The notes beneath the pieces were generated by a model. The model was given only the letters and a program-made list of their open reading frames with translations. It was not told where the DNA came from and searched no databases. A program made the translations under genes and the position numbers. From assembly GCA_964500435.1 (NCBI GenBank), contig CAZCNL010000005.1, forward strand, positions 101,180-165,179: a stretch of DNA of 64,000 nucleotides, written 5' to 3'. Each line of letters begins with the position of its first letter. Within the stretch, counting starts at the first letter, position 1. This DNA is from an uncultured Chloroherpeton sp. GTDB taxonomy: Bacteria; Bacteroidota; Ignavibacteria; Kapaibacteriales; UBA2268. Below are positions 2,010-63,672 of this stretch, piece by piece.

Positions 2010-3407
2010 ATGACAGAAACAATGACGAAGAAACTAAACGACTCAAAGGCTGCAAGGTGGACAGCTTTAGCTATAGTCTCGTTTACGATGTTCGCAGGAT
2101 ATTATCTTGCTGATGTCTTAGCACCATTGCAAGGACTTTTAGAAAACAAATTAGGTTGGTCCAGCTCAGAGTATGGATTTGTTACAAGCGCCTATGGATG
2201 GTTCAATGTATTTTTATTCTTCTTAATCATCGGAGGAATAATATTAGACAAAATGGGTGTACGATTCACTGGATTGGGCGCCTCAATTGTAATGGTCATT
2301 GGTACTGCAATAAAATATTGGGCAGTTTCGACCCATTCGCTTGATGGAATAAATTGGCATATAATTTGGTTCGACGTTAAAGCACAAGTAATGTTAGCCG
2401 CTTTGGGCTATGCTATTTTTGGTGTTGGTGTCGAAGTTGCCGGAATAACCGTTTCAAAAATTATTGTTAAATGGTTCAAAGGTCACGAACTTGCTCTCGC
2501 TATGGGTTTGCAATTAGCAGTAGCAAGAATTGGAACGGCACTTGCTATTTCAACCTCTTTGCCCATTGCTTTAGCTTTCAATAATGTTTCAACACCGATT
2601 TTATTTTGCTTAATAATGCTTGTTATTGGCTTCCTCGCTTTCTTTTTGTACACTTTTAGCGACAAAAAATTAGACAAAAGCATTGCAGCTCATAACGAAG
2701 AAAATCAAGTAGCCGCCGAAGAAGAATTTAAAATAAAAGATATATTTAATATCATCACAAACAAAGGTTGGTGGTATATCGCAATTTTATGTGTTTTATT
2801 CTACTCAGCAGTTTTCCCCTTTTTAAAATATGCAACCCTTTTAATGGTAAATAAATTTGGAGTTTCAGAATATTGGGCAGGTTCAATCCCAAGCCTTTTA
2901 CCTTTTGGCACAATACTTTTGACACCGCTTTTTGGTGGAATATACGATAAAAAAGGAAAAGGAGCGACAATAATGATAATCGGCGCTTTGCTAATTATCT
3001 TTGTGCACGCAATGTTCTCAATTCCATTTTTAAACAGTTACTTCATTGCCATAGCGTTAATATTAATTTTAGGAATAGGCTTTTCATTGGTACCTTCTGC
3101 AATGTGGCCATCTGTACCCAAAATTATACCAGACAGACAACTCGGAACAGCCTATTCTCTTATTTTTTGGGTACAAAATTGGGGATTGATGGGTGTTCCG
3201 TATTTAATTGGTTGGGTTTTAGAAAAATATTGCATCACAGGAACAAAAGTAATCGATGGAGTTCAATCCACGACTTATGATTACACGTTGCCAATGTTAA
3301 TATTTACTTCATTCGGTGTTCTTGCTTTAATATTTGCTTTCCTTTTAAAAGCTGAAGATAAGAAAAAAGGCTATGGTTTGGAATTACCTAATATAACAAA
3401 GGAATAG
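2010..3407 (+). CDS. MFS-type transporter
   Basis: 465 aa with about 12 hydrophobic helices. It is a paralog of the ORF at 34208-35623 (shared N-terminal YxxDVLxPLxxLL motif). Confidence 0.7.
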   Translation: MTETMTKKLNDSKAARWTALAIVSFTMFAGYYLADVLAPLQGLLENKLGWSSSEYGFVTSAYGWFNVFLFFLIIGGIILDKMGVRFTGLGASIVMVIGTAIKYWAVSTHSLDGINWHIIWFDVKAQVMLAALGYAIFGVGVEVAGITVSKIIVKWFKGHELALAMGLQLAVARIGTALAISTSLPIALAFNNVSTPILFCLIMLVIGFLAFFLYTFSDKKLDKSIAAHNEENQVAAEEEFKIKDIFNIITNKGWWYIAILCVLFYSAVFPFLKYATLLMVNKFGVSEYWAGSIPSLLPFGTILLTPLFGGIYDKKGKGATIMIIGALLIIFVHAMFSIPFLNSYFIAIALILILGIGFSLVPSAMWPSVPKIIPDRQLGTAYSLIFWVQNWGLMGVPYLIGWVLEKYCITGTKVIDGVQSTTYDYTLPMLIFTSFGVLALIFAFLLKAEDKKKGYGLELPNITKE

Positions 3408-4915: not shown

Positions 4916-5842
4916 TTAATTAACAATAAATTTACCAAAATCAATAACTTTGTTATTTCTTGTTATCTTATAATAATAAAAACCAGGAGGATAATTATCA
5001 ATTGATATTTTTATAACTTTTTGATTTGTGGTAATGATATTTTTGATTTCTTTAATTAGTGTACCTTCAATTGTATGAATTCTAATTGATATAATTTCAT
5101 TATTATTGAAATTATTTAGTTCTAAATCAAAATTTCCGTTATTCGGATTTGGTATTACCTGTGAATAAACAAAAGAGTTAAATCCTTTAACTGAAAATAT
5201 CAAAGGAGGCGGTGGTGGTTCATGAGCTGAATCACAAGTAAACCAACACGGCGTTGTCCATTTATCACAACCATCAAACGGATGTCCTGGTTGAAACAAT
5301 TTGCGTAATAATTTAACTGAATCAATATTATAATAATCATTTGCATAAAGAGCATACTGTTCCCAACAGCAATTATCATCAGGCAAACATCCTCTGATTT
5401 TGTAAACCTGATCGATTTCATCCCACCATTCTCCCCAACATGATGTTTGAAAAACCCTCCATAAAGTATCATATTGTGGCTTTTGATGGTTAAGCAATTT
5501 ATTATTTGTAAGTAAATGTTTTATTGCTTTTTTATAAATTTCTTGCTTTGAATAGCATAAATCACAACCTGGTGAGGATTCTACGAAACGTAATTGTAAG
5601 TCCTTTGTGTATATTGCTGCTGCTAAATCTTTACAAGTGTCATCTATAAGACGATACCAATATTCATATGAAATATAACAATTAGGGCAAAGAGAATCAG
5701 TAAAGCTTCCTACTTCAGTATCAATCGACCATTTTACATTCCAACAATCGGTACATGGTGGTTTATCTGGTTGTGATATCAAATTAATAGATAATAATTC
5801 AAAAATTATTAAATATATTGCAATTAAATATTTTTTGTTCAT
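4916..5842 (-). CDS. Cys/Trp-rich secreted protein with T9SS C-terminal sorting domain
   Basis: Signal peptide, more than 20 Cys and many Trp/Tyr in the mature part, a PPPPP linker, then a CTD (IPNPNNGNFDLEL...GFYYYKI). It is preceded, in its own orientation, by copy 1 of the conserved leader element. Confidence 0.6.
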   Translation of the reverse strand: MNKKYLIAIYLIIFELLSINLISQPDKPPCTDCWNVKWSIDTEVGSFTDSLCPNCYISYEYWYRLIDDTCKDLAAAIYTKDLQLRFVESSPGCDLCYSKQEIYKKAIKHLLTNNKLLNHQKPQYDTLWRVFQTSCWGEWWDEIDQVYKIRGCLPDDNCCWEQYALYANDYYNIDSVKLLRKLFQPGHPFDGCDKWTTPCWFTCDSAHEPPPPPLIFSVKGFNSFVYSQVIPNPNNGNFDLELNNFNNNEIISIRIHTIEGTLIKEIKNIITTNQKVIKISIDNYPPGFYYYKITRNNKVIDFGKFIVN

Positions 5843-5899
5843 TTGTTTTTTCCTTATTTTATTTTTACATTTTTTTTGATAAGATTAATTTTTTTTCGC

Positions 5900-6260
5900 T
5901 CTATTTAAGCATCAAGGGAATTTTTGCTTGTGGTAACAACTCTATTCCAAATCGCTACAAAGCTGTGCGGAACTACCACGCCTCCCGCAATTGCTTTGTA
6001 GCACTGTCGCAATGAATTTCCACTCGCAGTTGTAAATAAATAATTTCTCTCGGCAAAATTTATTTGAACAAAATAATTTTTCTTTCTTTGGAAAATTTGA
6101 ATATATCGCAGTTTCAATACAATAAAAATATTTTTGAAGCGTCCATATAAAGCCATAAAGCCATAAAGCCATAAAGCCATAAAGCCATAAAGCCCATCCT
6201 ATGCCCTTTTTCGCATTTCCCGCCTCTCCAATATTTTTATTTCCTTCTTTCATTTATTTT
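5900..6260 (-). repeat. conserved ~350-bp leader element, copy 1 (reverse orientation), containing a 6x octamer tandem repeat
   Basis: Its reverse complement aligns over ~250 bp with 56800-57180 and 62470-62860. The shared core is GGCATAGGATGGGC(TTTATGGC)n...TTGCATTGAAACTGCGATTTATTCAAATTTTCCAAAGAAAGAAAAATTACTTTGTTCAAATAAATTTTGCCGAAAAAAATTATTTATTTACAACTGCGAGTGGAAATTCATTGCG. Confidence 0.8.
6147..6194. repeat. tandem octamer repeat (ATAAAGCC)x6 inside leader copy 1
   Basis: Six perfect 8-nt units by direct reading. The equivalent position holds 3 units at 56898-56921 and 2 units at 62571-62586. Confidence 0.9.
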
Positions 6261-6330
6261 TTTATTTACATTTTATATTTTTTCTAATTTAACAAATTCT
6301 TTATATATATAACAAGTGAACAGCAAAAAA

Positions 6331-6462
6331 ATTACATTCAGATGCAAAAAAATTTTTCAACCCGTCATTGCGAGCGAAGCGAAGCAATCCCTTGCTTTCC
6401 TGGGATTGCTTCGTCAACTTTGTCTCCTGGCAATGACGTCATCGTATTTTCCCGTGTTATTT
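6331..6462 (-). repeat. nested-palindrome MITE-like element, copy B
   Basis: attacattcagatgcaaaaaaa...GTCATTGCGAGCGAAGCGAAGCAATCCC...GGGATTGCTTCG...GCAATGAC. The outer arms GTCATTGCGAG/CTCGCAATGAC and the inner arms GAAGCAATCC/GGATTGCTTC are inverted repeats. The same family occurs at 52019-52162, 56629-56760, 60319-60460 and 62307-62440, with a fragment at 3486-3510. Confidence 0.8.
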
Positions 6463-52018: not shown

Positions 52019-52162
52019 CTACATTCAGAATAACGAGAAGAAGACGGTTGTATCATTGCCAGTAAACGAAAGTCGACGAAGCAGTCCCAAGAATGCAAGA
52101 GATTGCTTCGCTTCCGCTCGCAATGACTGGTTGAAAAATTTTTTTGTATCTGAATGTAACTT
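52019..52162 (+). repeat. nested-palindrome MITE-like element, copy D, with terminal inverted repeats
   Basis: The flanks acattcagaat ... attctgaatgt-like (tacattcagaa / atctgaatgta) are inverted. The internal sequence is cgacgaagcagtcc...gagattgcttcgcttccgctcgcaatgac. It sits 120 bp upstream of the 52283 gene. Confidence 0.75.
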
Positions 52163-52282: not shown

Positions 52283-54874
52283 ATGAAAGAATTTTTACAG
52301 AAAATTGAACTTGAAGACAAAAAGGGCTTCAATGGTTCAATTGTTCAATGGTTCAATGGATTACGATTTATAATCGTATTTATTGTAATTATATTTATAT
52401 TTCCGAATAATTCTAATGCATTATCAGAAGGGAAGCTATCTTTCCTAAACTACTCATCGTTAACAGTAGTTGCAGATAGTATATTAAATGTTGGCGATAC
52501 TATCAAATTGCAACTAAATGTAACATCTCTTCAGCAAGATTCAGCAACAATATTGTGTCATGTTAGTAGGGGGTTATATATCTTGAACAATGATTCTGAA
52601 TTTTATAATATAAGAACTTATACAGATACAAATTCATTACAAAATATAGAAATTAGGTTAATAATTGATTCTATTCAAAATTGTTTTTTTGAATTGGTAA
52701 CAGTTTCTGATTTTAATATCGGATTATATGGAAATACAATATCATATCGAAGAGAATTGTTCATCAATGGTGGGAACGAATTAGTTTTAAACAATACTTA
52801 TGATAACAATGATGCAATTATAAATACAATTCAATATTCCCAACCAATTTGTACACTTCAAAATAACCACCATATAAAAATAAAAGGCAAGGTATCATTT
52901 CTTGATTGGAATGAACCAAAAACTTTTTATGCGAATGGTAATACATTAGAACATTTTCCGAGAAGGAAATCCCCGAGAACCACAGCATGGATTTTTTTCA
53001 GAACAAACGACCAACAAAATAAATTTTCTCATCCCATAAAATTTAATCAAATTACTGGAAAACCTATAAAAGGAATTCACTATGTAGAATGCATTGAGGG
53101 AACAAATTTTAATGAAGAGAGTGGTGAATTTATTTTCGAATTCGATTACAATCCACTATCTTTGTATTGTCAGGCTTATGAAAATATGACAGTAGAAATA
53201 TATATTGCAAAGGAAAATGAAGCAACATTATTAAATTCCGGGAGCGATCACATAATAGTATCAAATTACCCAAACCCTTTTAATACAACCAACGAATTAA
53301 AACTTTACCCTACAAAATATTTTAGCATTACTTATCCAAATGGTGTGCCACAAAATATTGATATTTCTTATATTACAACACCAGAACTTAATATTGAATT
53401 ACCTTTTGACGAGGGCGCCATGTTCAGATATATGACTATTTCAAGAGAATTTCTTAAAGATCTATATAACAATAACAACCTTGAATTTTCTGAAAATCGA
53501 AAGTTAAAACAGTGCAATTCAAATTTGTTATGGAGGGCACATACAGGCAGTGATCCGGGCGGTCAATATTCTTTTAATTCAAAGAACATTGATATTTATA
53601 AATATTATAATGGAAATGATCAAAATTATACAAATTGCAAAGTAATCGCTCATGAATATGGTCATTATTTTGATCATATATTAACAAATTGTGGTCATAA
53701 TGAAATAGAAGGATTTGCAATGTTTTTTTCTTATGCAGCTAATGTATGGATGAGAAATTCTTTTGGTGACTTTTTTGGTATAGAAGATGATTGTGAGATT
53801 GGTCCATTTTGCAAGTTTATGGTAAATGATGTTGTCCTTACTAAGAATGGAGTATCATATAATAGATACGGTAATATCACTAAATTGGGTGTACCTGATA
53901 TAAATTCTTGCAGATTTGCTTGTTATTTATGGAATATTTATGACTCTAAAAGTGACCAGCCATTTTCACCAATTAATGATTGGGACGGTATGGCAAATGA
54001 CGATATCGAAGATTTACGAGAAGATCTAATGGACTTTTGGATTGAATTACCATTAGATGGAGTTAATTTTTCAGGTTTTAATGATTCTTTGAAAAACAAA
54101 TATTCTGCTAATGTAAGACTTCAAAATTCTTTACAAGCAATATATGATTTCATGGATTTTCCGTCAGGTAGTTTTAATCCATCAATTGAAAATATTTCGG
54201 CAAGAATGAGAAGCCCAAATATACAATCAATGAGTTATACTACTAACGTAATAAATAATCAAATCTATGTTAAGTTCTTATGGGGTGATGATATATCTTA
54301 TAAAAATATACCATTTGAATCTATTTACAAAGATACTAAATATGTATATCCATTTCAGAATACTCCTCAATCTATAAGACTTTCTCACAATTATACTAAT
54401 TCGGATGAATGGCAAGTTTATGAAACAATTGAAAATTATATCAATGTTAAAGAAAGTGAGTGGTATTTAACTAATAATGATATTCCATACGACAAATTTA
54501 AATTATCGACTTTGAATACTAATTCAGAAGAGTCTTACCAACCATTAATAGTTAATTTTGGGATTCCAATGGCAAAAATTGCTTATAATGATTTGGAAGT
54601 TTCAGACATTTCTCTTAACTTAACAACCTATAAAATTGAAAACTTATTAACTATCAGTTCATTAGATAAGATTGATATTAAAATGATTAGGTTTTATAAT
54701 ATTGAAGGTAAAATTGTAAATGAAATTGCAATAAATGATGGTTTTTCATTGTATCATTCAATTGATTTAAGCAATACAGTTCATAATATCAGTTCACAAT
54801 CATTATTTATGCAAATAATATTTACAGATAGAAATAATAAGTTACATTTCATTAATTATAAATTAATAAAATAA
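52283..54874 (+). CDS. large secreted protein with HEXXH zinc-metalloprotease-like motif and T9SS C-terminal sorting domain
   Basis: 863 aa with an N-terminal TM/signal region. The internal motif is AHEYGHYFDH. The C-terminal ~90 aa (IRFYNIEGKIVNEI...FMQIIF) is CTD-like. Confidence 0.55.
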   Translation: MKEFLQKIELEDKKGFNGSIVQWFNGLRFIIVFIVIIFIFPNNSNALSEGKLSFLNYSSLTVVADSILNVGDTIKLQLNVTSLQQDSATILCHVSRGLYILNNDSEFYNIRTYTDTNSLQNIEIRLIIDSIQNCFFELVTVSDFNIGLYGNTISYRRELFINGGNELVLNNTYDNNDAIINTIQYSQPICTLQNNHHIKIKGKVSFLDWNEPKTFYANGNTLEHFPRRKSPRTTAWIFFRTNDQQNKFSHPIKFNQITGKPIKGIHYVECIEGTNFNEESGEFIFEFDYNPLSLYCQAYENMTVEIYIAKENEATLLNSGSDHIIVSNYPNPFNTTNELKLYPTKYFSITYPNGVPQNIDISYITTPELNIELPFDEGAMFRYMTISREFLKDLYNNNNLEFSENRKLKQCNSNLLWRAHTGSDPGGQYSFNSKNIDIYKYYNGNDQNYTNCKVIAHEYGHYFDHILTNCGHNEIEGFAMFFSYAANVWMRNSFGDFFGIEDDCEIGPFCKFMVNDVVLTKNGVSYNRYGNITKLGVPDINSCRFACYLWNIYDSKSDQPFSPINDWDGMANDDIEDLREDLMDFWIELPLDGVNFSGFNDSLKNKYSANVRLQNSLQAIYDFMDFPSGSFNPSIENISARMRSPNIQSMSYTTNVINNQIYVKFLWGDDISYKNIPFESIYKDTKYVYPFQNTPQSIRLSHNYTNSDEWQVYETIENYINVKESEWYLTNNDIPYDKFKLSTLNTNSEESYQPLIVNFGIPMAKIAYNDLEVSDISLNLTTYKIENLLTISSLDKIDIKMIRFYNIEGKIVNEIAINDGFSLYHSIDLSNTVHNISSQSLFMQIIFTDRNNKLHFINYKLIK

Positions 54875-54885
54875 AGGGGGCTATA

Positions 54886-56499
54886 ATGAAAAAAGTATAT
54901 ATTATTTTATTAACCTTGGTTTTCTTCCAATTTAATAAATTGTTTTCTGAAAATTGGGAACCTTTTCCATTGAATCAAACTTCATACTATAAAATAACAA
55001 AAGCAAAATATCTTTGGATTGATAATATTTTTGAAAGCAAAGATTTGATCGACGCTATAACAATAATAAAATTCGATTCAGTAACAAATCAAAATTCAAA
55101 TAATAAAAAATATTACTCACAAATAATAAAAAATAACGATAAATGTCTTTTAAGTAAACAAGATACATTATGGGATAAATATGATCACTTACAGAATCTA
55201 CAACCAAAGTCGTATATTTTTGTTGACGATACTTTAGTATTCCTAATTAAGGATGAGCATAATATTTCAAATACTTGCTTAAAGTTGCCATTAAATTTAG
55301 ATAATAGTAAATCCTATTTCCAAATAAATTATGATAGCAATTTCAATTCTACTATGAAAATTGAAACTAAATTAATCTCTAAAACAGAAAAATCAATTTT
55401 TGGTATCAAAGATTCAATAATTACTTTTGAGATACAAAGAAGACGAGTGCCAGAAAAAGAAGATGGTACTTTTATAATTGAGTTAAGCAAAACTTTTGGG
55501 CTAATAAAATATTTCCCTTTAGACATACTTTTTAATTGGTCGTTATCTGCTCAAATTCAAGAGATAGAATTAGCTTCTGTCGATAAAAATCAAGAGCATT
55601 ATGGCGAGGTTTATGATTTTAAATATCGCAATCGTAACTTATTTGAAAAGCCCAGAAATATTAAAATATATAGGGATGTCTGGGGTGTTAATTCCTGGGA
55701 TTATGTATTTATACGAGATTCAATAATTAGTGTCGACAATTCAGAGGACTTTGTTTTTGTAGTATATAATCGCCAAACATTATCGTCTAATCAAGGAGTA
55801 AAACCGAATATTAATATAAATTATACATATACTTACTTAAAAAAAGATAGTATAATTTATGAAGGATTTAATGCTATGGTAGATGCCCTCCGAAGAGGCG
55901 AAACTTTTATTCCAAGTGCACATTTATTTGATAAAGTTCCTAACAATGAAACTAAGCAAATTGACGATTCATTAGAAGTTATTGCTACTCCATTATTATT
56001 TAAATTTGTTGATAAATGTGGTCACAAAGATCTACAGATATTTTATGTTTTTGATGCAACATTAGATAGAGAAAATTGCTTTCTTCAAAATCGATTTTTT
56101 GTAAACAAGATATTAGATTATAAAATGGATTTGTGGTGGGAGATCAATAACTATGGACCGTGGCGAACTGATGACCTCTATATTGGTTTCAAAGATGGCG
56201 ATTGTGAATGGGGCGATTTAAGTTGGCCACCCAAGGAAGTATCAGTCTCGCAAGAGCAGCAATATCATTATCAACTCTTCCCCAACCCAGTTCGTTCAAC
56301 AACACGGGTGAATTTGCAACAAGAGGGGCAAGTGGCGATTACGGCAGTGGATTTGCTTGGACACTCGTTCCCGCTTTGGTCGGGCTATGCAAGCACCGGC
56401 ACTCTGGAACTTGACGTCAGCACCTTGCCGACAGGCTCCTACACCTTGCTCATCGATTACGGCACAAAACGAGAAGCAGTACGGATGATGAAGGAGTAG
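54886..56499 (+). CDS. T9SS C-terminal-domain secreted protein, paralog 1
   Basis: 537 aa with a signal peptide. The CTD is LFPNPVRSTTRVNLQQEGQVAITAVDLLGHSFPLWSG...TLLIDYGTKREAVRMMKE. It is about 80% identical to 60579-62177 and only 11 bp downstream of the previous gene, so probably co-transcribed. Confidence 0.7.
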   Translation: MKKVYIILLTLVFFQFNKLFSENWEPFPLNQTSYYKITKAKYLWIDNIFESKDLIDAITIIKFDSVTNQNSNNKKYYSQIIKNNDKCLLSKQDTLWDKYDHLQNLQPKSYIFVDDTLVFLIKDEHNISNTCLKLPLNLDNSKSYFQINYDSNFNSTMKIETKLISKTEKSIFGIKDSIITFEIQRRRVPEKEDGTFIIELSKTFGLIKYFPLDILFNWSLSAQIQEIELASVDKNQEHYGEVYDFKYRNRNLFEKPRNIKIYRDVWGVNSWDYVFIRDSIISVDNSEDFVFVVYNRQTLSSNQGVKPNININYTYTYLKKDSIIYEGFNAMVDALRRGETFIPSAHLFDKVPNNETKQIDDSLEVIATPLLFKFVDKCGHKDLQIFYVFDATLDRENCFLQNRFFVNKILDYKMDLWWEINNYGPWRTDDLYIGFKDGDCEWGDLSWPPKEVSVSQEQQYHYQLFPNPVRSTTRVNLQQEGQVAITAVDLLGHSFPLWSGYASTGTLELDVSTLPTGSYTLLIDYGTKREAVRMMKE

Positions 56500-56507
56500 G
56501 GCTATTT

Positions 56508-56563
56508 AACCTTCAGAAGGTTCTTTTCACCAGATGTCCTACACCTCCAAGGTGTAGGACATC
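56508..56563 (+). terminator. tandem hairpins after paralog 1 (terminator-like)
   Basis: AACCTTCaGAAGGTT followed by a T-rich tract, then the perfect 13-bp stem GATGTCCTACACCtccaaGGTGTAGGACATC. The same pair occurs at 62186-62241. Confidence 0.6.
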
Positions 56564-56628
56564 TTAGTTTCTACTTCCCCTTCCTTAAAGCGGTGTCACG
56601 CAGTGCCGGGGCAGGCATTATTATAAAA

Positions 56629-56760
56629 TCCCGTTTTCAAGGGAATGACAAATTTGCTGGTCTTTGCGAGGAGTTTAAGCGAAGAAGCAATCTGAGAAAG
56701 GTATTGCTTCGCTTACGCTCGCAATGAAGAAAATAAATTTCTTGCATTTGAATGTAATTT
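56629..56760 (+). repeat. nested-palindrome MITE-like element, copy E
   Basis: tcccgttttcaagggaatgacaaatttgc...ttgcgaggag...gaagcaatctgagaaaggtattgcttcgcttacgctcgcaatga...ttgcatttgaatgtaattttttgcc. Confidence 0.8.
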
Positions 56761-56799
56761 TTTGCCAAAATTTTTGTCTTTATTTTAAGAAAAAAATAA

Positions 56800-57180
56800 T
56801 TTGTTAAATTAGAGAAAGAGAAAGCTGCAAAACTAAAAAAATAAATGGTTGTAATTAATAAAAATATTGAGAAGGCGGGAAATACGGAAAATGGCATAGG
56901 ATGGGCTTTATGGCTTTATGGCTTTATGTGGATGCCTCAAGAATATTTTTATTGCATTGAAACTGCGATTTATTCAAATTTTCCAAAGAAAGAAAAATTA
57001 CTTTGTTCAAATAAATTTTGCCGAAAAAAATTATTTATTTACAACTGCGAGTGGAAATTCATTGCGTTTAGCGGGCTGATGCTGTTTTCCTGAAAGATTT
57101 TTGGATAATAGCAGAAGTCTGCAAAAGCCGCTCGCAGTTCCACTGGGCAGAGCGAAAGCTTGGAACTGTTCGAATAATGC
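56800..57180 (+). repeat. conserved ~350-bp leader element, copy 2 (3x octamer repeat)
   Basis: Colinear with 62470-62860 at roughly 85-90% identity, and with the reverse complement of 5900-6260. GCTTTATG occurs 3 times at 56898-56921. The tail contains the hairpin CAGTTCCA...GCGAAAGC...TGGAACTG. Confidence 0.8.
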
Positions 57181-57225
57181 TCGGGAAAGTAAATATTTTA
57201 TGTAAAAAATATAAAAGAGGAAAAA

Positions 57226-57867
57226 ATGAAGAATATTATAATTAAATTAGTATTATTAATAATTATATTTACGGGAATAAGTATCAAAGCAACTTCACAA
57301 ATACCAAATAATTGTCCGGATGGATTTACGATGATTGAAGCTCAAATTCCAGTAACTGAAAATGGCAATACTTGTATTTACCAAGTGTTTTTGTGTACCA
57401 AATGTCAAGCAGGGACGTATCCAGGCTCGATATTGACAGAAATAATGGTGCATGCAATGAGACCGATAGATGAGAACTGCCAATGTAATCCAGATGTAGT
57501 TATGAATGCTATAGTGGATAAAATAAATGATGTAAATTGGCTTGCACAATTTATAAGTAATTGTGGAAATGGATGGCCCCCTTGTTCAGGAAATCCGGCA
57601 AATTACATACGAATAGAATATTACTATCCAAAATGCTGGAAGTGGGAATACTTCTTTTACAATGAAGAACCGCCATACGAATATGATATTTTTAAAGTTG
57701 CAGGATGTGATTGCTTTTGTAGATGGACAAAAACTTTTTGTTGGGATGGTAGCAGATTAATTGAAATAATAGAATTAGCCACACCCCCAGAACGAACAGG
57801 TACATGTGAGTGTTTGCAACCTGAATATAATGGAGAATGTTGGTCAGAAGATAGTGTCTGTCAGTAA
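57226..57867 (+). CDS. Cys/Trp-rich small secreted protein
   Basis: 213 aa with a signal peptide, about 24 Cys and many Trp/Tyr/Pro. No CTD is evident. It lies 45 bp downstream of leader copy 2. Confidence 0.6.
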   Translation: MKNIIIKLVLLIIIFTGISIKATSQIPNNCPDGFTMIEAQIPVTENGNTCIYQVFLCTKCQAGTYPGSILTEIMVHAMRPIDENCQCNPDVVMNAIVDKINDVNWLAQFISNCGNGWPPCSGNPANYIRIEYYYPKCWKWEYFFYNEEPPYEYDIFKVAGCDCFCRWTKTFCWDGSRLIEIIELATPPERTGTCECLQPEYNGECWSEDSVCQ

Positions 57868-60318: not shown

Positions 60319-60460
60319 TCCCGTTTTCACGGGAATGACAAATTTGCAAGTCATTGCGAGGAGACGAAGTCGACGAAGCAATCTCAGGAAGGGATTGCTT
60401 CGCTACGCTCGCAATGACATAAAAAAATTTTTTTTGCATCAAAATGTAATTTTTTGCCAA
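60319..60460 (+). repeat. nested-palindrome MITE-like element, copy F
   Basis: ATTCCCGttttcaCGGGAATgacaaatttgcaaGTCATTGCGAGgagacgaagtcgacGAAGCAATCtcaggaagGGATTGCTTCgctacgCTCGCAATGACat...ttgcatcaaaatgtaattttttgcc. It is upstream of paralog 2. Confidence 0.85.
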
Positions 60461-60578
60461 ATTTTTTGTCTTTATTTTTAAAAAATAATTTATTAAATTA
60501 GAAGTGTTAGAAGTAAGAAAGTAAATAATATTCTTCAAATACTGTTGAAATCTCTTTTATAAAATAAAAGGTCTTACA

Positions 60579-62177
60579 ATGAAAAAAGTATATATTATTT
60601 TATTAACCTTGATTTTCTTTGAATTTAATAATTTGTTTTCTGAAAATTGGGAACCCTTTCCATTGAATCAAACCTCTTATTATAAGATAACAAAAACAAA
60701 ATTACCTTATACTACAAATTTTGAAAGTAAAGATTTAATAGATGCAATAACAATAATTAAATTCGATTCAGTATCAAATCAAAATTCAAATAATAAAAAA
60801 TATTTCTCACAAATATTAAAAGTTAACGATAGTTGCATTATCAGTAAAAAAGATTCTTTATGGAATGATGATTTCCCAAATTTACAGCCAGAGGCATATC
60901 TTTTTCTTGGTGATACATTAGTATTCTTAATTAAGGAAGAGCATAATATTTCAAATACTTGCTTAAAGTTGCCATTAAATTTAGATCAAAGTGACTCCTA
61001 TTTCCAAATTAATTATGATAGCAATTACAATTCTACTATGAAGATAGAAACTAAGTTAATTTCTAAGACAGAAAAATCAGTTTTTGGTATTATAGATTCA
61101 GTAATTACTTTTGAAATTCAAAGAAACCGATTGCCTACAAAAGATGATGGTGTTTTTTTAATTGAGTTAAGTAAAAAATTTGGGCTAATAAAATTTTTCC
61201 CCTTAGATATTCTTGCTTATGGGGGGCTATTTGATCAAATTCAGCAATTAGAATTGGTATCGGTAGATGAAAACAAAGAACATTATGGCGAGGTTTATAA
61301 TTTCAAATATCGTAACCGTAACTTATTTGAAAAGCCCGGAAATATTAAAATATATGAGAATATATGGGGTGAACCTTGGGATTTGGTGTTTATTAGAGAT
61401 TCTATAATTAGTGTTGACAATTCAGATGATAGAGTTTATGTGGAATATAATCGACAAACAATGTCTACAAATCAAGGTATTAAACCGGACATAAATCAAA
61501 ATTATAAATATTTTTATTTTAAAAAAGATAGTTTAATTCATTATGGATTTAATGCAATGGTTGATGCCCTTCGAAGAGGTGAGACATTTATTCCGAGTAC
61601 AAATTTATTTGACAAAATTCCAAATGAGAAACCAACGCAAACACCCTTGGAAATAATTGCAACACCATTGTTATTCAAATTTATTGAAAAATGTGGTCAA
61701 AAAGATTTACAGATTTTTTATATTTACCAAGCTGGCTTGGATAGAGGAAATTGCACTCTTCCAATGAAATTTTTTTGGTACCGAATATTGGATTATAAAA
61801 TGGATTTGTGGTGGGAGTGCAATAACGAAAACATTTTTCCAAGCTTAGGGGACCACTATGTTGGTATTAAAGATGGCGATTGTGAATGGGGGGATTTATC
61901 GTGGCCTCCAAAGGGACTTTCTGTTTTTGAAGGACAGCAATATAATTCTTATCTCTCCCCTAACCCAGCTCGTTCAATTACACGATTAAATTTACAGCAA
62001 GAGGGAGATATATCTATAACGGCAGTGGATTTGCTTGGTCGCTCGTATCCCCTTTGGTCGGGCTACGCAAGCAGCGGCGATATGGAACTTGACGTAAGTA
62101 CCTTACCGACAGGCTCATACACCTTGCTAATTGATTACGGCACAAAGCGAGAAGCAGTACGGATGATGAAGGAGTAG
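60579..62177 (+). CDS. T9SS C-terminal-domain secreted protein, paralog 2
   Basis: 532 aa, colinear with 54886-56499 over its full length, with the same CTD. Confidence 0.7.
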   Translation: MKKVYIILLTLIFFEFNNLFSENWEPFPLNQTSYYKITKTKLPYTTNFESKDLIDAITIIKFDSVSNQNSNNKKYFSQILKVNDSCIISKKDSLWNDDFPNLQPEAYLFLGDTLVFLIKEEHNISNTCLKLPLNLDQSDSYFQINYDSNYNSTMKIETKLISKTEKSVFGIIDSVITFEIQRNRLPTKDDGVFLIELSKKFGLIKFFPLDILAYGGLFDQIQQLELVSVDENKEHYGEVYNFKYRNRNLFEKPGNIKIYENIWGEPWDLVFIRDSIISVDNSDDRVYVEYNRQTMSTNQGIKPDINQNYKYFYFKKDSLIHYGFNAMVDALRRGETFIPSTNLFDKIPNEKPTQTPLEIIATPLLFKFIEKCGQKDLQIFYIYQAGLDRGNCTLPMKFFWYRILDYKMDLWWECNNENIFPSLGDHYVGIKDGDCEWGDLSWPPKGLSVFEGQQYNSYLSPNPARSITRLNLQQEGDISITAVDLLGRSYPLWSGYASSGDMELDVSTLPTGSYTLLIDYGTKREAVRMMKE

Positions 62178-62185
62178 GGCTATTT

Positions 62186-62241
62186 AACCTTCAGAAGGTT
62201 TTTTTCACCAGATGTCCTACACCTCCAAGGTGTAGGACATC
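62186..62241 (+). terminator. tandem hairpins after paralog 2 (terminator-like)
   Basis: AACCTTCaGAAGGTTttttttc, then GATGTCCTACACCtccaaGGTGTAGGACATC. Confidence 0.65.
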
Positions 62242-62306
62242 TTAATTTCTACTTCCACTTCCTTGAAGGGGTGGCACGTAGTGACGGGGAGGTATAATTA
62301 TAAAAT

Positions 62307-62440
62307 CCCGTTTTCAAGGGAATTAAAAATTTGCAAGTCATTGCGAGGAGCGTGAGCGACGAAGCAATCTCAGGAAGGGATTGCTTCGCTACGCTCGCAA
62401 TGACGAAAAATTTTTTGCATTAGAATGTAATTTTTTGCCA
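62307..62440 (+). repeat. nested-palindrome MITE-like element, copy G
   Basis: tcccgttttcaagggaat...gtcattgcgaggagcgtgagcgacgaagcaatctcaggaagggattgcttcgctacgctcgcaatgacg...ttgcattagaatgtaattttttgcc. Confidence 0.85.
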
Positions 62441-62469
62441 AATTTTTTGTCTTTGTTTTTAAAATAATT

Positions 62470-62860
62470 TGTTAAATTATAGGAAGAGAAAGCTGCAAAA
62501 CAAGAAAATATATGGTTGTAATTAATAAAAATAAAGAAAAGGCGGGAAGTTCGGAAAAGGGCATAGAATGGGCTTTATGGCTTTATGTAGACGCCTCAAG
62601 AATATTTATATTGTATTGAAACTGCGATTTATTCAAATTTTCCAAAGAAAGAAAAATTACTTTGTTCAAATAAATTTTGCCGAAAAAAATTATTTATTTA
62701 CAACTGCGAGTGGAAATTCATTGCGTTTAGCGGGCTGATGCTATTTTGTCGAAACAATATAATTTGTTTTGGGAATTAGCAAAAGTCCGCTGAAATCGCT
62801 CGCAGTTCTATTGGGCAGGGCGAAAGTTTGGAACTGTGCCAGTAATGCCTGAAAAAAATC
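62470..62860 (+). repeat. conserved ~350-bp leader element, copy 3 (2x octamer repeat)
   Basis: Colinear with copy 2. GCTTTATG occurs twice at 62571-62586. The short ORF that is open in copies 1 and 2 is interrupted here by a TGA, which argues that the element is non-coding. Confidence 0.8.
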
Positions 62861-62886: not shown

Positions 62887-63672
62887 ATGAAAAAGATATT
62901 TATTTTATCGGTTGTATTATTGCTTTTATTCTTTAGTAGTATAAATACTATGAGAGCTCAATTGGAGAATTGTTATCCAACTAATCAAAATGAAACTTGT
63001 ACCGATTGGACAGGTTCATCATTTGAATTTACTTATATGAGCTGTAACGTCCATATAGATTATTATTACAGAGTTTGCAAAGACCCTACTGGATGTGAGG
63101 GACAACCTAAAGTCAGAATAGATGCTCGTATATTCCAAATTGTTTGGGATTGGGATAACTGCTTAAATTTAACTCAAGCTATATATCCAGGTTATCCAAA
63201 TGATTTCGGTACGATGAATTATGTTCAATTTGCATCATTGTTTAATTTAGCAAGCAGGCAAATGGGGGAAACATCTTTTATAAATTATTACAATTCGCAC
63301 CCTGACGAACAAATTTCACTACAATGCTATGGTACACCTCCTGATTGTTCAGACCCAGACCCAAATAGTTGTAATTTTTCTGTATATTATTCAAATTTCT
63401 CGTGTGAGATGATTTGTTGGCATATTAAAGATGCAGGAACAGGTTGGGCTGGTCCTGGAGTAATTGTAAATAATTATCCTTGTACATCTGCAAATTCAAC
63501 TTGCTGTGAACACATTGCTCACTATTGTATGTGTGGCGATCAAGTGCATTCAATTATTTCAGTAAATGGAACAGGTTTATGTAATGATGCTATTCCTCCT
63601 TATGATTCTTGCTTCGAATTAGAACATTATACGACTTATTCAAGTAATGGTTGTATTACAATTTGCGAGTAA
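62887..63672 (+). CDS. Cys/Trp-rich small secreted protein
   Basis: 261 aa with a signal peptide and about 30 Cys. It is unrelated in sequence to the 57226 product but similar in composition, and lies 27 bp downstream of leader copy 3. Confidence 0.6.
   Translation: MKKIFILSVVLLLLFFSSINTMRAQLENCYPTNQNETCTDWTGSSFEFTYMSCNVHIDYYYRVCKDPTGCEGQPKVRIDARIFQIVWDWDNCLNLTQAIYPGYPNDFGTMNYVQFASLFNLASRQMGETSFINYYNSHPDEQISLQCYGTPPDCSDPDPNSCNFSVYYSNFSCEMICWHIKDAGTGWAGPGVIVNNYPCTSANSTCCEHIAHYCMCGDQVHSIISVNGTGLCNDAIPPYDSCFELEHYTTYSSNGCITICE

Follow-up and report, generated by a model that had tools for sequence, protein, structure and literature searches.

Three tandem arrays of the octamer GGCTTTAT occur in a stretch of 64,000 nucleotides (hereafter the window) from contig CAZCNL010000005.1 of an uncultured Chloroherpeton sp. 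(assembly GCA_964500435.1), each of them lying within a homologous block of about 400 nt that forms a conserved leader ahead of a gene for a signal-peptide protein. We tentatively propose, giving the proposal slightly less than an even chance, that the array, a hypermutable repeat, sets the reading frame of a short open reading frame (ORF) in this conserved mRNA leader, and that it would act as a random on/off switch.

The array of copy 1 occupies positions 6147-6194 on the minus strand and consists of six units, and the arrays of copies 2 and 3, both on the plus strand, contain three units (56904-56927) and two units (62571-62586), respectively. Tandem Repeats Finder returned a period of 8 nt with 100% matches in all three cases, reporting 6.0 copies for 6147-6194 (as ATAAAGCC on the plus strand), 3.1 copies for 56904-56928 and 2.1 copies for 62571-62587. 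A 16-mer probe made of two units gave 8 overlapping matches in the window, all at the three arrays, against 0.07 expected from shuffled sequences, thus confirming the presence of the arrays as well as the unit counts of 6, 3 and 2 given by a previous sequence-only reading of this DNA. The coordinates assigned in that reading were exact for copies 1 and 3, whereas copy 2 had been placed at 56898-56921, which is 6 nt too far upstream. The flanks had also been described as conserved and the arrays as lying upstream of genes for secreted proteins; in agreement with both statements, the three copies share 94-96% identity over the 139 nt following the array and 80-88% before it, and all three downstream genes begin with signal peptides.

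Read 5' to 3' on the leader strand, which is the minus strand for copy 1, the conserved block comprises a palindrome resembling repetitive extragenic palindromic (REP) elements, a promoter-like box, a TTG...TAAATTWG motif and an ATG. After this ATG come 19 purine-rich codons, the array and a conserved core of 139 nt (6008-6146 on the minus strand in copy 1; 56928-57066 and 62587-62725, both on the plus strand, in copies 2 and 3), which ends in the invariant box AACTGCGAGTGGAAATTCATTGCG. The core is followed by a G+C-richer domain of about 120 nt, hereafter the 3' domain, and by an A-rich stretch with a Shine-Dalgarno-like motif, after which the signal-peptide protein starts. The array is located about 320 nt upstream of the start of this downstream gene.

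Species-representative genomes were scanned with 20 nt of the invariant box, a metagenome scan provided 18 further contigs and three look-ups added 3 more. The scan of the species representatives found the element in three metagenome-assembled genomes (MAGs), namely "Bacteroidetes bacterium BP6.bin56" with about 11 copies, a Chloroherpeton-labelled MAG with 5 copies and a Candidatus Kapabacteria MAG with 2 copies. Four other matches, in Tenacibaculum, Flavobacteriaceae and Actinomycetota contigs, comprised the 20-mer with none of the flanking leader and were discarded as chance. The leader is present in multiple copies in Kapabacteria-like Bacteroidota MAGs. All complete copies have the main ATG at +168 to +209 from the box, and the main ORFs encode signal-peptide or lipoprotein-type proteins of several unrelated families. 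The same orientation and the near-constant distance to the start codon indicate that the leader is a cis element tied to the starts of secreted-protein genes and not a randomly inserted repeat; for the same reason, a mobile element similar to a miniature inverted-repeat transposable element was considered and rejected. A search of the entire window against Rfam 15 gave no match at the gathering thresholds, and searches of both leader regions at E values up to 10 returned noise only, with scores of 17 bits or less.

Unit number was compared among 36 distinct copies of the leader and ranged from 1 to 12, with 1 unit in three copies, 2 in six, 3 in seven, 4 in five, 5 in nine, 6 and 7 in one copy each, 8 in three and 12 in one. 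The contigs L042 and L043, which come from two metagenomes, could be aligned over 6770 nt with 0 mismatches and a single 8-nt gap corresponding to one unit (4 vs 5). Contigs L007 and L018 are 100% identical over 3248 nt and carry 12 and 8 units, respectively, a pair that was given less weight because no more than 17 nt of L018 precede the array. In L031, the counterpart orthologous to window copy 1, with 95.6% identity over 2.2 kb, has 3 units instead of 6. Near-identical contigs thus differ in unit number, and the slipped-strand variation upstream of secreted proteins that had been suggested from the sequence is borne out at the level of strain comparison. With high confidence, these alignments show a hypermutable octamer repeat, whose unit number changes by slippage within very short evolutionary times. 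Most arrays are homogeneous, 22 out of 31 being perfectly pure and 7 more varying in the last unit only, and the stretch just before the array is strongly diverged in comparison.

For the proteins downstream of the three window copies, exact-protein look-ups were of limited use, as the comparison of unit numbers was mostly blocked by public contigs ending inside the core. The short-read contigs L001, L003, L011, L012, L015 and L020 all end there, since the leader is a multi-copy repeat that fragments assemblies. Truncated leaders were also observed in L029 (about 1500-1572), L042 (minus strand) and L043 (about 960-1060), where the 3' part of the core, the box, the 3' domain and the downstream gene are kept and the leader ATG and the array are absent.

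The array is embedded in an ORF. In 31 of 32 copies an in-frame ATG precedes the array by 18-20 codons, mostly 19, with no intervening stop; the DNA between this ATG and the array is highly variable, and its length differences amount to whole codons. The leader ORF of window copy 1 comprises 103 codons (5942-6253, minus strand), starting from the ATG at 6251-6253, 19 codons before the array, and extending across both array and core and on into the 3' domain. That of copy 2 has 82 codons (56845-57093, plus strand) and its ATG, at 56845, is likewise 19 codons before the array. In copy 3 the ORF starts from the same conserved ATG and consists of 35 codons (62512-62619, plus strand), stopping at a TGA at 62617-62619.

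An 8-nt unit shifts the reading frame by 2, so that the unit number n modulo 3 determines the frame in use, n = 0 leading to frame f1, n = 1 to f2 and n = 2 to f3. In the 31 copies that were tabulated, the stop in f3 lies between -70 and -103 with respect to the box, and f1 and f2 cross the whole core and the box, ending at +25 to +163. Copies 1 and 2 of the window are both in the long frame f1 (6 mod 3 = 0 and 3 mod 3 = 0) and copy 3 has the short leader ORF (2 mod 3 = 2). The contigs L042 and L043, which differ by one unit alone, are in different frame states.

In 35 copies the core downstream of the array measures exactly 139 nt and is free of indels. Although its consensus is 73% A+T, it contains only 3 stop triplets, which share a single frame, whereas dinucleotide-preserving shuffles give 9.5 on average; in the same shuffles, the probability of finding two or more open frames was 6e-4 and that of finding 3 or fewer stops was 2.4e-4. 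A single copy carries a stop in each of the two open frames, and on the reverse strand all three frames are closed. The leader-ORF model is also consistent with contig L025, in which an in-frame TGA interrupts the leader ORF and three imperfect units are what is left of a decayed array. A separate observation that fits the same model concerns L046 (561-827), where n = 2 is combined with the deletion of 1 nt from a T run in the core, which returns the leader ORF to the long frame; this deletion is the only indel seen in the 139-nt core and, with a coverage of 3.8x, it may be an error.

An ORF with these features might be a real gene for a small secreted protein of 80-120 amino acids, switched by repeat frameshifting as in the opa genes and made of a positively charged N-terminus, a repeat-encoded hydrophobic (ALWLYGFM)n signal or anchor and a C-terminal part with four cysteines. 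The translated repeat is indeed hydrophobic in every frame and follows a Lys-rich N-terminus, the four cysteines are kept in nearly all copies, and gene callers predicted the ORF over the leader in 11 clusters of database homologs, which differ in the number of ALWLYGFM peptide repeats. However, the core showed no constraint at the amino-acid level. Its variable columns are spread evenly over the three codon positions (22/19/21), there is no excess of synonymous variants (18 observed vs 14.8-17.5 expected) and the ratio of non-synonymous to synonymous polymorphism (pN/pS) was 0.70, 0.60 and 0.96 for the three frames, the values for the putative protein being 18 observed vs 14.8 expected and 0.70. 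Moreover, the second frame is equally open, only 9 of the 36 copies are in the frame that the protein would require and Pfam returned no match for the leader ORF product. A conventional protein gene was rejected, as the Pfam, codon-position, synonymous/non-synonymous and pN/pS tests showed no constraint in any frame, and a phase-variable secreted protein encoded by the leader ORF is considered very unlikely. From these patterns of variation, the core appears to be constrained at the nucleotide level, with the added constraint of staying readable in two frames. The leader ORF ends up as a hypothetical protein in the output of gene callers, which, together with the breaks that these leaders cause in short-read assemblies, is a practical warning.

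The residues 0, 1 and 2 of n modulo 3 were found 8, 7 and 16 times, respectively, among 31 copies. The occurrence of all residues with no strict preference would be expected of a neutral microsatellite, i.e., an easily slipping unit at a length-tolerant site with no regulatory consequence, and the stability of some loci across many assemblies, as well as the leaders devoid of array and leader ORF that still precede genes (L029, L042/L043), would fit this explanation. On the other hand, the same unit is found at the same site in three lineages despite the strongly diverged flank before the array, and the arrays stay pure. A conserved ATG and two frames free of stops also give the array a frame-sensitive setting, and in L025, the sole copy with a broken leader ORF, the array has decayed too. 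We consider a neutral repeat to be an unlikely explanation.

As for the position of the array relative to the promoter, the scan for promoters detected no sigma-70-like pair of hexamers near the array on the leader strand. Upstream, a single motif, TTG(TTAT)...TAAATT(T/A)G, is conserved in every lineage, and this TTG/TAAATTWG pair is found about 25 nt before the conserved ATG and about 90 nt before the array. TAAWTTTG is the Bacteroidota -7 consensus; boxes of this type also occur 28-100 nt upstream of about eleven other genes of the window, and a search of the window with the combined pattern TTG-N20-TAAATTWG was not informative. The putative -7 boxes of the Bacteroidota type are TAAATTAG in copy 1 (6284-6291, minus strand) and copy 2 (56805-56812, plus strand) and TAAATTAT in copy 3 (62473-62480, plus strand). 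The promoter-like box also precedes two genes with no leader (52132 and 60422); homology between copy 2 and these leader-less promoters ends just after the box, and homology with 60422-60512 stops right after it. On the basis of the conserved motif position and of the end of homology after the box, we infer that transcription starts at this point. The array is then most likely transcribed, at about +85 of the transcript, a conclusion that we hold with moderate confidence.

This arrangement bears on the switch of promoter geometry that the sequence-only reading had envisaged. For such a switch the array would have to separate two promoter elements, or an activator site from the promoter, with 8-bp steps altering their phasing. 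An 8-bp unit is not a helical repeat and each step would rotate the flanking sites, but the leader strand shows no sigma-70-like hexamers on either side of the array, about 90 nt separate the array from the conserved promoter-like motif upstream of it, and the arrays span 8-96 bp, far beyond any -35/-10 spacer. The conserved ATG, the frame features and the strand-specific G-U pairs described below all point to a transcribed region. Promoter-geometry switching was not supported by these data and is regarded as highly improbable; as the array lies within a short upstream ORF, the relevant quantity is the unit number modulo 3 and not helical phasing.

The 3' domain occurs as two unrelated sequence types, both of which are complementary to the invariant box. 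Type A is found in copies 2 (57067-57195, plus strand) and 3 (62726-62856, plus strand), and is predicted to form a 12-bp helix between the box AACUGCGAGUGG and CCGCUCGCAGUU, enclosing a nested hairpin and followed by a second hairpin. By inspection, an alternative helix of CAGUUCUA with UUGGAACUG could also form, the CAGUU strand being common to this helix and to the 12-bp one. Type B is found in copy 1 (5885-6007, minus strand) and is predicted to be pseudoknot-like (GCUACAAAG/CUUUGUAGC together with GUGGUA/UACCAC), with a 10-bp helix and a crossing 7-bp helix of GUGGUAA with UUACCAC; its CCAC...CAGU strand can alternatively pair with the box (GUGG). The boundaries of all three domains are approximate. 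In 17 type-B sequences, 94% of the cells in the predicted helices were paired, against 37-64% in slid controls, and several of the changes are G-U changes that are possible on the leader strand only. Folding of the whole leader gave z-scores of -3.2, -3.1 and -2.1 for the three window copies. A divergent copy of the leader, on the minus strand of L025 (about 2800-3300; Candidatus Kapabacteria MAG), carries a 3' domain of a third type.

In the frame-switch mechanism that we propose, the unit number modulo 3 would result in a short leader ORF when n = 2 and in a long one when n = 0 or 1. A short leader ORF would end 70-103 nt before the box, leaving the box and the 3' domain free of ribosomes, whereas a long leader ORF would bring ribosomes onto the box and onto the 5' half of the 3' domain, preventing the formation of the box helix. 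The 3' domain might then be refolded or protected, and expression of the downstream gene altered as a consequence. Slippage would flip each leader-carrying locus independently, on or off. Either the short or the long state may be the ON state, and the output may be exerted on transcription, on translation or on RNA stability.

A transcribed array might also tune expression by its length, through RNA structure, processing or spacing, rather than by setting a frame. Such a graded effect of the 5' untranslated region (5'-UTR) is compatible with an array that probably lies within the transcript, and a precedent is provided by the heptamer of the Haemophilus influenzae hmw1A 5'-UTR, which forms an RNase III hairpin (PMC12721329). 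For copies 1 and 2 of the window, RNAfold predicted a long A/U stem between AAUAAAAAUAUU before the array and AAUAUUUUUAUU after it, with the array at the stem's tip. This flanking stem, however, is not kept in copy 3 or in other lineages, where changes in it are uncompensated, and the stem bracketing the array was not adopted as part of the structure. Reading of the leader alignments by eye, with no dedicated search, revealed no conserved partner complementary to the unit. Moreover, the conserved ATG and the strand-specific lack of stops in two frames would remain unexplained, and we judge a graded effect to be rather improbable.

Several observations weigh against the frame switch and have to be set beside the evidence given above. 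The positions of the long-frame stops are not conserved, being scattered from +25 to +163. The short state is in excess, with 16 of 31 copies, but only marginally so (binomial P = 0.036; chi-square P = 0.09), and these copies cannot be counted as independent. Two exact leader-ORF products, P0004 with 3 units and P0011 with 8 units, were each found on 9 contigs with the same unit number throughout. No Shine-Dalgarno motif was found before the leader ATG, but, as about half of the genes of the source genome are devoid of such a motif, a leader ATG lacking one is plausible. In addition, each unit of the repeat has an ATG of its own, those of the last two units always falling in the two long frames; initiation at these ATGs would make the unit number irrelevant. 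As for the 3' domain, double changes are few and the support from covariation is weak. A scan of both leader regions for intrinsic terminators, i.e., hairpins with a U tract, found none between the leader ORF and the gene; A-rich and not U-rich sequence follows the hairpins of the 3' domain. The output step of the pil1 model discussed below is therefore missing, and the frame switch does not account for the link to expression.

The frame switch finds its closest known counterpart in the pil1 locus of Streptococcus gallolyticus, where GCAGA repeats lie in the ORF of a leader peptide with one short and two longer frames, and translation of the longer peptides prevents formation of a downstream terminator hairpin (Danne et al. 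2014, PMC3894217). The architecture described here matches that of this leader-peptide repeat switch. In both systems the repeat is placed within a leader ORF, whose 5'-proximal position is deduced here from the promoter motif; one frame is short and stops well before a downstream RNA structure, two longer frames reach or pass that structure, and unit number differs between strains. The unit is an octamer in 1-12 copies here and a pentamer in about 22 copies in pil1. Unlike pil1, no intrinsic terminator was found in the leaders, the downstream structure being a larger domain of two types with alternative helices, and no Shine-Dalgarno motif precedes the leader ATG. The leader is also a conserved multi-copy module, with 3 copies in the window and about 11 in one related MAG, placed before unrelated families of secreted proteins in an uncultured environmental Bacteroidota lineage, and an effect on expression, demonstrated in pil1, is here a proposed one.

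A second comparison is offered by the 5'-UTR repeats of H. influenzae hmw1A and hmw2A, which consist of the heptamer ATCTTTC or, in some strains, of the octamer GCATCATC (PMC12721329, PMC2651432). These too are tandem repeats of 7-8 nt in a transcribed region (a probable one in our case) upstream of a gene, which in hmw encodes an adhesin, and their copy number varies between strains, modulating expression post-transcriptionally in hmw. In hmw, however, the repeat makes up one of the two arms of a long hairpin that RNase III cleaves, and expression declines gradually as the repeat number rises, whereas no conserved complementary arm was seen here, in alignments inspected with no dedicated search, and the repeat is found in an ORF with frame-dependent stops. 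In the Neisseria opa genes, CTCTT repeats are located in the region coding for the signal peptide, inside the regulated gene itself. The features in common with opa are a repeat that encodes a hydrophobic, signal-peptide-like segment, slippage that shifts the frame and many loci per genome switching independently, the last being a proposal in the present case. The difference is that the octamer array lies about 320 nt upstream of the gene start, in a separate ORF with no constraint at the protein level.

The genes that follow the three leaders encode Cys-rich proteins with signal peptides. Copy 1 precedes a gene for a 308-aa protein (4916-5842, minus strand) that carries a C-terminal sorting domain (Por_Secre_tail) of the type IX secretion system (T9SS), while the proteins encoded downstream of copies 2 (213 aa; 57226-57867, plus strand) and 3 (261 aa; 62887-63672, plus strand) have no Pfam match. 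The T9SS sorting domain is thus present in one of the three downstream proteins, and it also occurs in several neighbouring genes. Copies 2 and 3 belong to a segmental duplication of about 2.3 kb (54863-57180 and 60556-62848) that comprises a gene for a T9SS protein of 532/537 aa and the leader; within it, the leader core is 96% identical, compared with 78-89% for the coding part. The REP-like palindromic element, GTCATTGCGAGG...CTCGCAATGAC, is found at 6364-6437, 52053-52127, 56660-56728, 60350-60418 and 62337-62404, each time followed by the promoter-like box TTTTTTGCATnnGAATGTAATTTTTT, and precedes genes that have the long leader as well as genes that lack it. Another octamer array, (TTCAATGG)x4, in which one unit is the variant TTCAATTG, was observed at 52328-52359, within the 5' end of an 863-aa ORF (52283-54874) and directly before its hydrophobic N-terminal segment, where slippage would frameshift the ORF itself.

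Repeat-driven phase variation is known almost entirely from host-adapted pathogens, usually in promoters or inside the regulated gene. The same mutational device is found here in uncultured environmental Kapabacteria-like Bacteroidota, within a conserved multi-copy leader RNA that is absent from Rfam, and the geometry of this leader matches the rare leader-peptide/attenuation type of switch known from pil1. A wider reading, which we regard as possible but doubtful, is that of a so far undescribed, family-wide contingency leader, in which a single RNA module would stand before ten or more unrelated secreted-protein genes per genome and act as a frame switch with three states (short, long-1 and long-2), the loci flipping independently and generating combinatorial variation of the surface and the secretome in a Bacteroidota lineage that is free-living and non-pathogenic. 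Within this wider reading, the hydrophobic, signal-peptide-like leader peptide encoded by the repeat could also, by analogy with SecM, MifM and VemP, couple leader translation to secretion capacity. If true, the frame switch would mean that selection can hold a leader ORF open in two frames with no constraint on the peptide, that one portable leader module can bring many unrelated genes under independent random switches, and that stochastic variation of the secretome is used outside pathogens.

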